Positions 4,187-11,525 of a DNA stretch of 32,000 bases are shown piece after piece (position 1 is the stretch's first letter; the number at the start of each line of letters is the position of its first letter). The notes beneath the pieces are model-generated. The model saw only the letters and a program-made list of their open reading frames with translations, had not been told where the DNA came from and searched no databases. The translations under genes and the position numbers were made by a program. The stretch lies in contig NZ_CP069798.1 in the NCBI RefSeq assembly GCF_016894345.1, positions 2,795,248-2,827,247 of the forward strand. Direction: 5' to 3'. The stretch comes from Paralysiella testudinis (GTDB taxonomy: Bacteria; Pseudomonadota; Gammaproteobacteria; Burkholderiales; Neisseriaceae).

Positions 4187-4196
4187 AAGATACTGT
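4187..4196. repeat. Core repeat AAGATACTGT (copy L), proposed prophage attachment junction next to wrbA
   Basis: Exact 10-mer shared with 11516-11525; variant AGGATACTGT at 5536-5545. Confidence 0.6.
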
Positions 4197-4522
4197 ATTG
4201 CAGCGTCAAGCTAAAAATCTGGTCAATATTTGCAAATCATTGTTTAAAAATGGAATATAGTTTTAGCAGGCGGGTGCAGGCGTTCCCCTGCGGGTCGGGC
4301 TTGCATGGCTGCGCCACTCAACCGCTACGCGTTTTCGCCGTTCCGGTGCTAATCCCTAACGCAAGACCTTGGGGCTTTGCCCCAAACCCCACACTCGCCG
4401 TGAGGCAGCTGGTGGGGCGATAAAACCACCCCACCAGCAGCCAGGAGCGTTTTTTGGGTGGGTTCTACGTCAAGGGGTATTCATAAAGGCTGCGCCTTTA
4501 CAAAGCTTCCCCTTGACTTCAT

Positions 4523-5494
4523 TTATACGGGTTCGGGATTCAGGCGTTTGGGGTCAAACGGTTGGCCGCTCTTGAGTACGGCATAACAGTAGGTGAGCAG
4601 TTTACGCATGAGGGCGCAGATGATTTGTTTGTTGTGTTTGCCATTATCACGCATGCGCTGGATAAAGGGCTTGAATTCGGGTAGGCGGAAGGCCACGACG
4701 GCGGGCATGTAAAGGGCGGTGCGGATGAATTTGTCACCCATCTTTGAAATCGCCAAGTAGCTGGTTTTCTTGGTGCCAGACTGTTTGATGATGGGGTTTA
4801 AACCGACAAACTTGGTCACTGCGCGGTTGCTGTTGAATTCTCTTTCGGCAAAAAGGGCGAGCAGGTGGGGTACGGTGGCGTCACCTACCGCCCTAACGGT
4901 CTTTAGTAAGTCGGCCTTTTGTTGCAGTGATTCATCAGCGGCAATGTGGGCTTGAATGGCGGCTTGAACTTCGGCTATTTGCTGGCGAAGGTTATCTATT
5001 GTTTTGTCGATGAAATCATGTATTGAAGGATGGGCAACCTGCAAACGGTTAAGCTGTGCGGTATGCATGTCTTTGTAATAGTCAAGCTGGCGCGTGAGGG
5101 CTTTGAGCTGCCGTTCTGATGGGCTGGGCGGGGTGTACAGGTCGGGCTTGATATCGGCACAAAAACGGGCAATGATTTTGGCATCTTGCTTGTCGGTCTT
5201 GACACACTGAAGTTTGGTGTTGGCGTATGATTTGATGGCAAAAGGGTTGACGACGGAAACAAGGTGGCCGTGGTCGTGCAGGTAGTCGGCGATGGCTTCG
5301 GAATAGGTTCCTGTGGCTTCGCAACAGGCGTGGACTTGGGGGGTGTATTTGGCTATCCACTCAGACAGCTTTTCAAAGCCTGTTGGATCGTTTTTGATAA
5401 CGCGGTGGAAATAACGGTCGTTCATTTTCAAACAGGCGTCAATTTTTGACTTTGAGACATCTAAACCAAGGTAAACAGCGGTGGTGGTGTTCAT
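4523..5494 (-). CDS. IS110-family DEDD (Piv-like) transposase/recombinase, presumed prophage integrase
   Basis: N-terminal RuvC-like DEDD layout (YLGLDVSKSKID, CCEATGTYSE, KTDKQDAKIIA). C-terminal Transposase_20-like region (FVGLNPIIKQSGTKK...SKMGDKFIRTALYMPA). SD GAGGGGG lies 6 nt before the ATG. Confidence 0.9.
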   Translation of the reverse strand: MNTTTAVYLGLDVSKSKIDACLKMNDRYFHRVIKNDPTGFEKLSEWIAKYTPQVHACCEATGTYSEAIADYLHDHGHLVSVVNPFAIKSYANTKLQCVKTDKQDAKIIARFCADIKPDLYTPPSPSERQLKALTRQLDYYKDMHTAQLNRLQVAHPSIHDFIDKTIDNLRQQIAEVQAAIQAHIAADESLQQKADLLKTVRAVGDATVPHLLALFAEREFNSNRAVTKFVGLNPIIKQSGTKKTSYLAISKMGDKFIRTALYMPAVVAFRLPEFKPFIQRMRDNGKHNKQIICALMRKLLTYCYAVLKSGQPFDPKRLNPEPV

Positions 5495-5535
5495 GTAAAA
5501 CCCCCTCTTATATTCAAGCTGGCTTGTGGCCGCCT

Positions 5536-5545
5536 AGGATACTGT
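5536..5545. repeat. Core repeat variant AGGATACTGT (copy M), 42 nt upstream of the recombinase ATG
   Basis: 5511-5549 is homologous to 11487-11529: 14/17 identities, then a 2-nt versus 6-nt indel, then CCGCCTA(G/A)GATACTGTTCA. Confidence 0.6.
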
Positions 5546-5637
5546 TCAGGTTTTAAAACGGGTGAGAACCCCGCCTGCCAATCTTTTGTTCAGGCTCGAA
5601 GCCTAGCTGCTGGGAACGGCTTGGGCGGGGGGACTGC

Positions 5638-5961
5638 TTAAACTACAGGTGCATTATCAGATACAGGTGCAGTATCAATCCATTCAATCAAAAATGCAAA
5701 CGTTGAAGAAATTAATTTAAGCTGCTCAACATCCAAAAAATGCCCTGATAAATTATTATCAATCAAGTTTTTCAACAAAAGCAACTGATTATAAGTCATA
5801 ACAGGCGCAGCAAGTGAATTGTGTACGTTATCAAAAGCAGCTGAAGAAAAAGGCACACAGGAAGATGAAACAGGATAACCGTTAATCGAACCGACAAATG
5901 CATTATCACCGACATGTAAAAATTGGTGATTATTCAAATCAACATCAATTGTCTTACTCAT
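5638..5961 (-). CDS. Hypothetical protein; AT-rich cargo (moron) gene downstream of zot
   Basis: ORF with GAGGA SD and the ATG at 5961. Visibly much lower GC than the rest of the prophage. No signal peptide or transmembrane segment, and no family I recognise. Confidence 0.6.
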   Translation of the reverse strand: MSKTIDVDLNNHQFLHVGDNAFVGSINGYPVSSSCVPFSSAAFDNVHNSLAAPVMTYNQLLLLKNLIDNNLSGHFLDVEQLKLISSTFAFLIEWIDTAPVSDNAPVV

Positions 5962-5971
5962 AAAAAAATCC

Positions 5972-9672: not shown

Positions 9673-9969
9673 TTATTCAACAATGGTGAAGTACAGGAAG
9701 TCTTTAAAGGCGCGGGGCATGATGCGCACGCGCAGGGGTTGGCCGGGCTTGAAGCCTTTAAATGCTTCGGGGTTCTTGGTTTTGATGTTGTAAATGTTGG
9801 TGTCTTGTTCGGTGCGGACGATGACGGCAACTTCGTAGTTGACTACGATTTTGCCTTCACGGTCTTTTTTCTCTTTGCGCACGATGCGGTCAAAGCTGGC
9901 TTCGATATAAAAACCTTGGGTGCTTTGGTTGCTGACTTGGGTGTTGGTGGTTTGGGTGTTGTCATTCAT
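9673..9969 (-). CDS. Probable ssDNA-binding protein (pV-like), assigned by size and position
   Basis: 98-aa soluble basic/acidic protein between Rep and the major coat gene. No recognisable motif. Confidence 0.5.
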   Translation of the reverse strand: MNDNTQTTNTQVSNQSTQGFYIEASFDRIVRKEKKDREGKIVVNYEVAVIVRTEQDTNIYNIKTKNPEAFKGFKPGQPLRVRIMPRAFKDFLYFTIVE

Positions 9970-9999
9970 GGCTTTGGTTCCTTGTGGTTTGGGTGGTGG

Positions 10000-10995
10000 T
10001 TAAATCGGCATGGCGGCGATGGTTTGGCGGTTGGTGTAGGCCCATTTGCTGCCGAGGCGTTGGGTCAATAGTTCGCTGTAGTTCTCTTGGGTCATAAATT
10101 GGTAGTCGGTTTGGCTGCGGTAGTAGCCGCCGATGATGTGGCGTTCAAACAGGTAGTTATCTACTTCGATAATCCAGTTCTTAAGCTTTTGACGCCAAAG
10201 CTTGCTGCCGGGGCTGGCAAACTGAAAATTGCTGGTGGCTATTTTCCATTTGCTTTGTTTGTCTTGGCTGGTCTGGCACAGGCGCACGCCTTTGTCGGCG
10301 CTGATGCGGCTGTCGATGTGTTTGCCGATGTACTTTGCTACGTAACGGGCTAGGCCTTTGCTGTTGGTCTTGACGGGCATGAGTTCGCTGCGGCCAAAGC
10401 CGTATTTGGGCATGGCGGTTCTTAGGTTTTTCCAATGGCGTTTGATTGCTTCATTAGCGGTTTTATAGTTGCGGGCGGCGATTTGGCGGAAGTTCAGGCC
10501 TCTGCGGATGTTGTCTTTGCAGACAACAAGCAGGTGGTAATGGATGCGGCCGCTTTTGGTTCTCTCTACTACGCGGATGTAGTGTTTGTAGTGGTGCTTG
10601 AGGAAGTTTGTGCGCAGGCTGTTAAAGCGGCGCTGGGCTTCGGACGGGCAGGTGACGTGGTCTGCGAAGGTCAGGGTCATAAAGCCGACGTGGTCTATGC
10701 CGAAGCGGTCAATCAGGGCTTTGGTGTTAAGCTCGAGGGCGTAGGCGCTTTTGCGGTGGGCGGTGGTGAACTCATTGAGTTCTGCTTCTTTGTCAGACTT
10801 GGCGCGAACTTCGGACGATGAAAAAACCGGGGCAACTTTGCCGCCTGCGGCGGCTTCGTTGGCTGCTGAAGCATCATCAATGCCGGGGCGGATTGAGATG
10901 TTTCTATTCAGACAAGGAAGCGACTTGCGGCCTGCGGCCTTCAGTCGTTCCGCTGCCGAATCGTTGCGCAACAGGGATTCTTTCAGGGCACTCAT
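10000..10995 (-). CDS. Rolling-circle replication initiator (HUH endonuclease, gene II / RstA analogue)
   Basis: Motifs MTLTFADHV, GRIHYHLLVV (HUH) and YVAKYIGK (catalytic Tyr) in the expected order. The start overlaps the upstream stop (TAATG). Confidence 0.85.
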   Translation of the reverse strand: MSALKESLLRNDSAAERLKAAGRKSLPCLNRNISIRPGIDDASAANEAAAGGKVAPVFSSSEVRAKSDKEAELNEFTTAHRKSAYALELNTKALIDRFGIDHVGFMTLTFADHVTCPSEAQRRFNSLRTNFLKHHYKHYIRVVERTKSGRIHYHLLVVCKDNIRRGLNFRQIAARNYKTANEAIKRHWKNLRTAMPKYGFGRSELMPVKTNSKGLARYVAKYIGKHIDSRISADKGVRLCQTSQDKQSKWKIATSNFQFASPGSKLWRQKLKNWIIEVDNYLFERHIIGGYYRSQTDYQFMTQENYSELLTQRLGSKWAYTNRQTIAAMPI

Positions 10996-11210
10996 TACAG
11001 GCCACCTGCTTGAATGTAGCGTTTGCCGAACAGGCAGGCACTTTCAAAACCGTGGTCAAGTTCACAGTCCTCGAAAATGATTAAGTAGGTGGGGAAAAAG
11101 CAGGAGGCGGGTTCTTCACGACCTTGGCAGACTGCAAGCCAGCCCTGAATCGGTTGGCCGTGGCTGTCGGTGCGGGTGTCCGGGTATACGGTGAACTTGG
11201 GTGATTGCAT
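10995..11210 (-). CDS. Hypothetical small phage protein
   Basis: ORF translationally coupled to rep. ATG at 11210 preceded by AGGGG. No motif recognised. Confidence 0.5.
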   Translation of the reverse strand: MQSPKFTVYPDTRTDSHGQPIQGWLAVCQGREEPASCFFPTYLIIFEDCELDHGFESACLFGKRYIQAGGL

Positions 11211-11252
11211 GAAAAGCCCCTGTGATTGATGAAGAGAATATCGGAACCTCAC

Positions 11253-11432
11253 TTACAAATATTCAAATTCATATTCGATGGGGGAAAGAACAAAGCGCTG
11301 GGCAGCTAAAGTTGCAGCCTCTTTTGTCGGGAAAAAAGACAAGCTAAGAACTTGAACAGAATCAACAACAAAAGTAAGCCAGTACTCATTAAGCGTGGGA
11401 GAGTAGGTGATTCTGAATTTATATTTTGACAT
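11253..11432 (-). CDS. Hypothetical 59-aa protein, first ORF of the prophage (below the ORF-track cutoff)
   Basis: My own translation is MSKYKFRITYSPTLNEYWLTFVVDSVQVLSLSFFPTKEAATLAAQRFVLSPIEYEFEYL. SD GAGGG lies 7 nt upstream and is embedded in the 15-bp inverted repeat at 11436-11470. Confidence 0.4.
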   Translation of the reverse strand: MSKYKFRITYSPTLNEYWLTFVVDSVQVLSLSFFPTKEAATLAAQRFVLSPIEYEFEYL

Positions 11433-11515
11433 GACAAAGCCCTCGTGATTGGTGGAATCACAAGGGCTTTATTAAGCTTACTAGCAGATTCAGGCTGGTT
11501 TGTCAAAAACCGCCT

Positions 11516-11525
11516 AAGATACTGT
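11516..11525. repeat. Core repeat AAGATACTGT (copy R), proposed prophage attachment junction on the yihY side
   Basis: Exact direct repeat of 4187-4196. Confidence 0.6.

Follow-up and report, generated by a model that had tools for sequence, protein, structure and literature searches.

Bridge RNAs were described in 2024, and bridge recombinases are under development as programmable genome-insertion tools. The Nf-type family of filamentous phages (inoviruses) includes the phage associated with meningococcal disease, and DNA-uptake sequences (DUS) have so far been known as transformation signals. In the IS110-group elements IS621 and ISCro4 (Durrant 2024, PMC11208160; Hiraizumi 2024, PMC11208158), a bridge RNA that has separate loops for target and donor and an AU handshake guide is encoded directly upstream of the recombinase gene; the core is CT, the promoter at the circle junction is divided between the two ends, and a repeated extragenic hairpin (REP in E. 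coli) is the target. The prophages Nf1–Nf4 and MDA-phi (Kawai 2005; Bille 2005; PMC7058167) combine an inovirus gene set, including a TspB-like protein, with an IS110-family transposase at one end, and Nf prophages have been thought since 2005 to integrate by means of this transposase, the reported site being the abundant dRS3 repeat (ATTCCC...GGGAAT), which contains CT (PMC7058167). The present analysis concerns a stretch of 32,000 nucleotides of the Paralysiella testudinis genome (the window; the analysis traced it to assembly GCA_042679285.1), in which positions 4190-11573 very probably constitute one mobile unit, namely, an Nf-type inovirus prophage whose genes are situated inside the left end of an IS621-like IS110 element guided by a bridge RNA.

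With IS621 and ISCro4, this locus shares a recombinase homologous over its full length, the CT core, the predicted bridge RNA with both loops and the AU handshake guide directly upstream of the gene, the predicted circle-junction promoter divided between the ends, and a repeated extragenic hairpin (here a DUS hairpin) as the target; an E. coli IS621-like copy (L219) even has exactly the same left donor half, ACAGTAT|CT. It differs from them in its size (7.4 kb compared with ~1.3 kb), the target loop being separated from the start of the left end by ~5.8 kb of inovirus genes, in a second donor-loop-like module near the left-end tip, in a right end of 333 nt with conserved hairpins, and in using a host DUS. 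The inovirus gene set with TspB-like protein, the terminal IS110-family gene, and an abundant repeat with a CT motif as the integration site are common to this prophage and to Nf1–Nf4/MDA-phi; in contrast to dRS3 as reported for Nf1, the site used here is the arm of a DUS hairpin followed by a T-run, the host is Paralysiella testudinis, and the recombinase is only ~40% identical to the Neisseria-clade proteins sampled. The Thermus inoviruses phiOH16, Zuza8 and Zuza27 and the human-saliva inoviruses OR148969-83 also carry an IS110 transposase at one prophage end (PMC11437467), with 30-39% identity in a comparison of the gene only, guides and targets apart. Like CTXphi, the prophage is a temperate inovirus with a specific chromosomal integration site, but CTXphi employs the host tyrosine recombinase XerCD and a folded single-strand attP, whereas this phage encodes its own DEDD/Ser recombinase and a predicted RNA guide. 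In the literature searched, no bridge RNA was described for Nf phages, and no paper linked bridge RNAs with inoviruses or DUS with phage integration. Nf phages with an IS110 transposase, other IS110-bearing inoviruses, bridge RNAs, and the NCBI label of the protein ("IS110 family RNA-guided transposase") being already on record, the kind of element is known; the split left end with phage cargo, the targeting of DUS, which in most relatives goes with the local dialect, and the additional donor-like module appear to be new.

Ten metagenome contigs lacking the prophage encode a YihY protein identical to that of the window, with wrbA next to yihY. From the alignment of four of them, the empty-site spacer was read as ...TTTTAACAAAAG|GCTGCCTGAAAACC..., and when the window was compared by BLAST with a prophage-free contig, 3388-4189 and the part from 11571 onward aligned with an overlap of 3 nt (AAG), the break falling at 4189 and 11571/11574. 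Thus, the insert comprises 4190-11573 (7384 bp). Only AAG is duplicated at its ends (CTT on the recombinase strand, that is, the CT core plus T), and the crossover lies within this triplet. The 48 nt at 11526-11573 belong to the element according to the empty-site comparison. A first-pass annotation of this DNA had obtained a continuous wrbA-yihY spacer by joining the outer flanks of a 10-nt direct repeat (4187-4196 and 11516-11525), and had stated beforehand that a prophage-free spacer not matching this join would speak against it. This is what the empty sites revealed, as the join contains 55 extra bases (4190-4196 plus 11526-11573) that are absent from every one of them. The notion that 11526-11573 is the scar of an earlier insertion was rejected because the segment is present in all relatives, including a circular one.

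The same bounds, TTCAG(N4-5)|CTTATAT ... LD-CT|RT (LD, left-donor half; RT, right target half), were found for 13 related prophages of 5.9-7.4 kb, and the right ends of all relatives read ..A(C/T)(A/G/C)(G/C)TAT-CT|flank. One relative, L144, is a circular 6.7-kb contig (30-nt end overlap), the joined ends of which read ...GGATAACAGTAT|CT|TATATTTTGCCCC...; its copy of the 10-mer corresponding to 11516-11525 lies 48 nt further in from the ACAGTAT|CT|TATAT junction. This circular contig is also the only indirect support for the possible production of filamentous virions with a circular ssDNA genome. A promoter scan of this circle junction gave TTGACC-17-TATATT, and the ends of the window element, joined in silico and read by eye, gave TTGACG-18-TATATT. 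In every relative, a distance of 16-18 nt separates the -35 element from the junction. When the prophage ends were scanned in their linear form, nothing relevant emerged; the promoter, which is predicted to be active, is present only across joined ends.

Among solved structures, the recombinase matched ISCro4 (E 6e-56) and IS621 (E 3e-53) over its full length, and the catalytic residues D12, E59, D101, D104 and S239 were invariant across 21 relatives; as in the IS110 group, an N-terminal DEDD (RuvC-like) domain is combined with a C-terminal Tnp domain that carries the catalytic Ser. All relatives with 54-71% identity came from metagenome contigs, and wherever the contig shows it, inovirus DNA lies upstream; in L018, only one 95-aa open reading frame (ORF) without a family is visible. 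Scanning genome contigs for this single protein retrieved only relatives with 38-44% identity, and the same scan of viral contigs retrieved nothing. The pattern GAACAGTATC-N16-32-ATATAAG had 120 matching stretches in viral contigs, which are attributed to chance because tblastn gave no recombinase relative in any locus fetched. Pfam agreed with the earlier assignment of the genes to an IS110-type DEDD recombinase and a filamentous phage: Rep, coat protein, TspB-like protein, DUF2523 and Zot are present with the IS110 transposase at one end, as in Nf-type phages. A compact IS (1.2-1.6 kb, recombinase as the sole gene) the element is not, as it measures 7384 bp and its target loop is separated from the left-end tip by ~10 inovirus genes.

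The region between the last phage ORF and the recombinase gene folds into two internal loops, each closed by a stem. The target loop consists of a 5′ strand (CCCAGCAGCU), a stem-loop (AGGCUUCGAGCCU) and a 3′ strand (GAACAAAAGAU), the donor loop of a 5′ strand (GAACAGUAUCCU), a stem-loop and a 3′ strand (GAAUAUAAG). In 12 distinct relatives, 91.9% of the cells pair and compensatory changes affect 17 of the 22 pairs, a result which none of 500 shuffles reached and which compares with 27-54% pairing in slid controls. These data show the architecture of the RNA and its covariation; that the region is transcribed into a bridge RNA, and that this RNA guides recombination, we infer. A conserved motif, GTTTA(A)GCAGTAC, at 5630-5640 and at the equivalent place in relatives, covers both the stop codon of the last phage ORF and the point where the bridge RNA starts. 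Several relatives, though not the window, also have a GCAGTA of this kind ahead of the left-end module. The motif may be a processing or start signal.

According to the rules established for IS621 (PMC11208160), the 5′ strand of a loop equals the top strand of the left half-site, and the 3′ strand complements the core together with the right half-site. Read in this way, the right-target guide (RTG) AACAAAAG fits the right flank CTTTTGTT at 8/8 positions; the left-donor guide (LDG) ACAGUAUC fits ACAGTAT+C, the terminus of the right end, at 8/8; and the right-donor guide (RDG) AUAUAAG fits CTTATAT, with which the left end starts, at 7/7. In IS621, donor positions 6-7 base-pair with the handshake guide A81/U82 (PMC11208158). 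The window and most relatives have an AU just behind the RTG, and donor positions 6-7 are A and T. Guide and flank change together: beside the pair of the window, ATTTCAG stands with CTGAAAT, AAACAAG with CTTGTTT, GACAAGAG with CTCTTGTC, TAAAGAG with CTCTTTA, and ACAAACAG with CTGTTTG. For 20 insertions, 99 of 120 RTG positions beyond the core match the flank, compared with 71 ± 3.8 after permutation (0 of 20,000 permutations reached 99). The left-target guide (LTG) likewise changes along with the left flank (GGTAGC, GGTGGC, GCTG, GCAG, ACGGCC) and matches the local DUS dialect at 7-8 positions in seven relatives. Sites read either ..GC|CT or ..G|CT, and the LTG can be fitted to either kind if one allows a G-U pair at the first core position or a bulge of 1 nt; CC or TT core registers, tried in order to remove the one-base LTG offset at GC|CT targets, were discarded, as neither fits every junction.

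On the donor side, the left-donor half is ACAGTAT in the clade of the window, ACGGTAT in L013 and ACACTAT in a Neisseria clade, and the LDG changes each time; in L013, the exchange of ACAGTAT for ACGGTAT affects the right end, the LDG and the left-end module together. L219, with its identical end, has the LDG ACAGTATCA and shares the unmatched ninth base. Three members of one phage lineage with near-identical bridge RNA (L151, L152 and L153) have three different flanks, all starting with CTTTTCT, which shows repeated insertions that are consistent with the guide. Two other prophages, L169 and L160, have the same right flank (CTCTTGTCTTTTATCTGCC...), which the RTG of L160 (GACAAGAG) fits and that of L169 (CAAAAAAG) misfits; this misfit suggests either an exchange of guide regions between co-resident or successive phages or an off-target event.

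The insertion site is the 3′ arm of a host DUS hairpin. The 10-mer GCTGCCTGAA, which is that of AG-simDUS (PMC7371117), occurs 29 times in the window, where 0.15 copies are expected, and every copy lies outside the prophage. After reconstruction of the empty window, only 1 of the 29 copies is followed by CTTTTGTT, and this is the one used; the last bases of the element, ..TAAG, restore the 12-mer AGGCTGCCTGAA. Left junctions correspond to the reverse complement of a DUS-like 10-mer in 13 of 13 cases examined, the window and 12 relatives alike (GCTGCCTGAA, GCTACCTGAA, GCCACCTGAA, GCAGCCTGAA, GCCGTCTGAA). Expressed as density, the DUS 10-mer is found ~1.2 times per kb outside the prophage and 0 times in its 7.4 kb; several relatives hold 1-4 copies of their local dialect. 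A sister clade (L160, L164, L166, L168, L170; ~41% recombinase identity, donor ACACTAT) integrates at TTCAGACGGC|CTTATATATTG; its target is the classical Neisseria DUS GCCGTCTGAA, not the dRS3 reported for Nf1, and its left end has no second donor-like copy.

The first-pass annotation had started from the 10-nt direct repeat and a third copy, and the repeat stood up to scrutiny: a pattern scan for ARGATACTGT returned three copies in the 32-kb window, all on the + strand, where 0.02 are expected. As had been noted, the middle copy (M, 5536-5545) ends 41-42 nt from the recombinase ATG (5494), and the sequences just inside M and the left-end copy (A, 11516-11525) are homologous, both reading TGAACAGTATCYTAGGCGG...CCAGCYTGAAT on the recombinase strand. 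The roles of the copies differ. The one at 4187-4196 (R) is the right-end terminus ACAGTAT plus the CT core and the first flank base; M is, by the guide rules above, the LDG of the predicted bridge RNA; A would be the segment of a conserved donor-loop-like module (module A) that matches the LDG. Thus, the 10-mer is repeated because a guide has to equal the site that it reads, not because every copy is a crossover, and an IS621-type RNA-guided recombinase most likely inserted the whole phage beside a host DUS.

The earlier proposal that all three A(A/G)GATACTGT copies are crossover cores, between which one recombinase moves either a 1.34-kb IS (4197-5535) or a 7.3-kb phage (4197-11515), has in its favour the repeats themselves, which are real and non-random, and the flanking homology common to M and A; moreover, the DNA encoding the LDG is itself a left-donor-like half-site, recombination at partial ("half-match") sites has been reported in recent preprints (10.64898/2026.08.31.748434), and some Thermus inoviruses have the IS110 transposase gene while others lack it (PMC11437467), so that the recombinase module was gained or lost over evolutionary time. 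We nevertheless regard it as very unlikely. Only R is at a true junction, where the crossover is the CT core (AG at 4188-4189 on the + strand), and its partner is 11572-11573, not copy A. In the L144 circle, CTTATAT follows the right end, where the junction CAATACAGTATCTTAGGCGG expected under this proposal would place the A copy; the 55 nt assigned to the chromosome are missing from the empty sites; and the 48 nt outside A are conserved in all relatives and hold the right-donor half and the -10 element. The phage-sized unit would lack 58 nt at the start of the left end, including the right-donor half CTTATAT and that -10 element. In the IS-sized unit, the left end is reduced to 41 nt, so that only half of the donor loop is included and the target loop (5569-5631) is missing altogether, which leaves the unit unable to guide its own insertion and hence non-autonomous; no solo copy was seen, the exact recombinase protein being present on one contig only, at the window's own locus. 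In addition, the middle copy has CCT instead of CTT. The general idea of a phage built into, or captured by, an IS110 element was upheld, that of nested movable units was not. Integration might alternatively have been brought about by the host, via XerCD/dif as in CTXphi or by homologous recombination after DNA uptake, with the IS110 gene as a passenger. Many inoviruses do use XerCD, and the Neisseriaceae are naturally transformable; for gonococcal Nf1, acquisition through transformation has been suggested (PMC7058167). Against this stand the lack of a dif-like site at the junctions, CT-core junctions that match the guides of the element's own RNA, and the occurrence of the lineage of L151, L152 and L153 at different sites, each fitting its RTG, which together make a host pathway extremely improbable.

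From the core at 11573, the left end of the element presents, in this order, TATATAT, the GCCCC...GGGGC hairpin, TGAACAGTATCTT, an AGGC...GCCT stem-loop, G-N-AT...TAAGC, and the 17-bp terminator-like hairpin; the module is conserved in L019-21, L144-147, L158, L208 and L013. Its donor-loop-like part, module A, looks like a bridge RNA copy without the target loop. The leading guess for its role is a donor-only guide RNA made from the circle, which would aid donor-donor excision or the handling of circles. According to two recent preprints, excision of IS110 elements needs recognition by the donor arm only and mainly yields top-strand, single-stranded circles, which makes a donor-only RNA from the joined ends a reasonable guess, though a guess only. 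The 3′ stem arm in both guide modules (11474-11500 in the window, and in relatives) reads CAGCCTGAA or CAGCCTGCA, 9/10 bases of Kingella-type DUS dialects, a likeness that may be a coincidence arising from the AGGC/GCCT stem.

Several observations weigh against a bridge-RNA-guided unit as outlined here. The LTG of the window matches its actual site (TTCAGGCAGC) at only 5-6 contiguous positions (the G-U pair at the core counted), or at 7 with a 1-nt bulge, compared with 7-8 in relatives, and the RTG of L169 misfits its own flank (3/6 positions). The bridge RNA region alone folds no better than shuffled sequences (z = -0.9), so that support for its structure comes from covariation, and nothing in Rfam, at gathering or at permissive thresholds, corresponded to the bridge RNA, to the left-end module or to the hairpins of the right end. 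As for module A, the outer stem closing its loop is not conserved in all relatives; its RDG-like part matches CTTA only, which counts against a guide RNA; a module-A-like copy was sought in the ACACTAT sister Neisseria clade and not found, despite integration of that clade at DUS sites; and a transcript from the junction promoter would begin within the 5′ hairpin, which weakens the reading of the left-end module as RNA. These features of module A also speak for an alternative in which the bridge RNA holds but module A is no guide RNA, being a relic of a duplication during phage-gene capture that may now serve as promoter or operator DNA or as a single-stranded DNA hairpin (e.g., a complementary-strand origin), as does the TTGACA hexamer found in the loop of its central stem in 6 of 8 clade sequences. 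However, module A is conserved down to 44% recombinase identity while the adjoining spacer diverges, its central stem keeps pairing through changed sequences (AGGC/GCCT, AAGC/GCTT, GAGC/GCTC), its 10-mer tracks the ACAGTAT to ACGGTAT change of the right end in L013, and a strong terminator-like hairpin comes next, as for a small RNA gene. A relic is thus conceivable, if rather doubtful.

In the cycle proposed for the bridge-RNA-guided unit, the DEDD/Ser bridge recombinase (4523-5494) would carry out both integration and excision, guided by the ~143-nt bridge RNA (5495-5637). On the chromosome, the LTG of the target loop would pair with the 3′ arm of the DUS hairpin (TTCAGGCAGC) and the RTG with CT and the following T-rich run (CTTTTGTT); on the joined phage ends, the LDG of the donor loop (ACAGUAUC) would pair with ACAGTAT+C and the RDG (AUAUAAG) with CTTATAT, and the crossover would take place at the CT core. 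The circular replicative form would join the ends as ACAGTAT-CT-TATAT and thereby assemble the promoter, TTGACG being contributed by the right and TATATT by the left end. The circle junction predicted for the window is ...GCTGCAATACAGTAT-CT-TATATATTCGCCCC..., and the predicted empty site is ...TTAACAAAAGGCTGCCTGAA....

More tentatively, and as a joint proposition to which we give rather little credence, inoviruses of Neisseriaceae may represent an RNA-programmed integration system, the target guide of which is tuned to the DUS dialect of the host (~1/kb, mostly in terminator hairpins), supplemented in the window's clade by a donor-only bridge RNA that would be transcribed only from the joined-end promoter and provide a dedicated donor-donor route for excision, copy-out or circle handling. 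If true, such a donor-only pathway could be a direct connection between the intermediates of IS110 elements and the single-stranded genome that a filamentous phage has. The extra module is itself a candidate for a split or auxiliary guide of natural origin. For genome insertion, the element offers a natural example of large cargo, with 6 kb (a whole virus) apparently placed inside the left end and the guide RNA apart from the element tip, which bears on the size and placement of cargo. A testable rule for the integration sites of Nf-type phages also follows, the target guide being readable from sequence. DUS would act as phage landing pads as well; in most of the relatives studied, the guide changes with the dialect (the fit is poorer in the window itself), and therefore dialect divergence could act as a barrier to phage host range.

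Features of the window in and around the prophage (guide and promoter features are predictions; positions are those of the window)
Feature	Position	Strand	Basis or remark
wrbA	3546-4142	-	Flank gene; called from second Met, 198 aa (ORF 205 aa)
Right half of target, CT core (4188-4189) then TTTGTT	4182-4189	-	Empty-site alignment, BLAST; reverse complement of RTG AACAAAAG
AAGATACTGT	4187-4196 and 11516-11525	+	Direct repeat
Right end, 333 nt	4190-4522	-	Empty-site and BLAST boundary
Left-donor half ACAGTAT	4190-4196	-	Right-end terminus (copy R)
-35 TTGACG of circle-junction promoter	4204-4209	-	Right end
Right-end hairpins	~4371-4383, 4393-4453, 4468-4518	-	Fold
IS110-group (IS621-like) DEDD/Ser bridge recombinase, 323 aa	4523-5494	-	Pfam PF01548 (DEDD_Tnp_IS110) and PF02371 (Transposase_20)
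Bridge RNA gene (module M), 143 nt between last phage ORF and ATG	5495-5637	-	Fold and covariation
Donor-binding loop	5497-5554	-	Bridge RNA
RDG ATATAAG	5507-5513	-	Bridge RNA donor loop
AGGATACTGT	5536-5545	+	Middle copy (M)
LDG ACAGTATC (RNA ACAGUAUC)	5538-5545	-	Bridge RNA donor loop; copy M
Target-binding loop	5569-5631	-	Bridge RNA
Handshake AT	5581-5582	-	Bridge RNA, after RTG
RTG AACAAAAG	5583-5590	-	Bridge RNA target loop
LTG	5605-5614	-	Bridge RNA target loop
Inovirus cargo block	5638-11432	-	Pfam; gene order same in relatives
Small ORFs	5638-5982, 9049-9354, 10995-11252, 11253-11432	-	
Zot/pI-like	5972-7108	-	Pfam
DUF2523	7112-7396	-	Pfam
TspB-like adsorption protein	7398-9062	-	Pfam
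Coat protein	9370-9600	-	Pfam
98-aa ORF without family assignment	9673-9969	-	
Rep	10000-10995	-	Pfam
Left-end module	11433-11573	-	Part of insert by empty-site comparison; fold z -5.97
Terminator-like 17-bp hairpin	11438-11468	-	Left end
Donor-loop-like module A, with 10-mer 11516-11525	11474-11528	-	Left end
5′ hairpin GCCCC...GGGGC	11547-11562	-	Left end
-10 TATATT of circle-junction promoter	11564-11569	-	Left end
Right-donor half TATATAT	11565-11571	-	Left end; overlaps -10
CT core, left junction	11572-11573	-	Left end
Inverted pair of DUS GCTGCCTGAA, terminator-like hairpin; left target half is arm 11574-11583	11574-11603	.	Terminator scan
yihY	from 11737	+	Flank gene

The right end of the window element folds more stably than shuffled sequences (z = -3.7), and its hairpin at 4393-4453 is conserved, with compensatory changes in 7 of 23 pairs. 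In L013 and L014, this hairpin is located upstream of the target loop, not downstream of the recombinase; no guide-like match to target or donor was noticed in it by eye, and it probably serves phage functions, such as packaging or as a replication origin, rather than guidance. As an observation in its own right, the hairpin module (ACGCT..GCTG-hairpin-CTGCC.CGTGGCGA) has a clade-dependent position relative to the recombinase gene and behaves as a movable module. Assignment to the IS1111 group, in which the guide RNA (seekRNA/bridge RNA) lies in a long right end downstream of the recombinase and the subterminal inverted repeats are long, was considered and rejected, as the guides are upstream of the gene and the right-end hairpin has another position in L013 and L014.

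Beyond wrbA, at 2380-3387, the window has another strain-specific insertion, of ~1.0 kb, which is absent from the prophage-free contig L003. It encodes an rve-type (DDE) transposase over two overlapping ORFs (2617-2943 and 2856-3392), and a target duplication may account for the 7-nt overlap between the alignments of its flanks.

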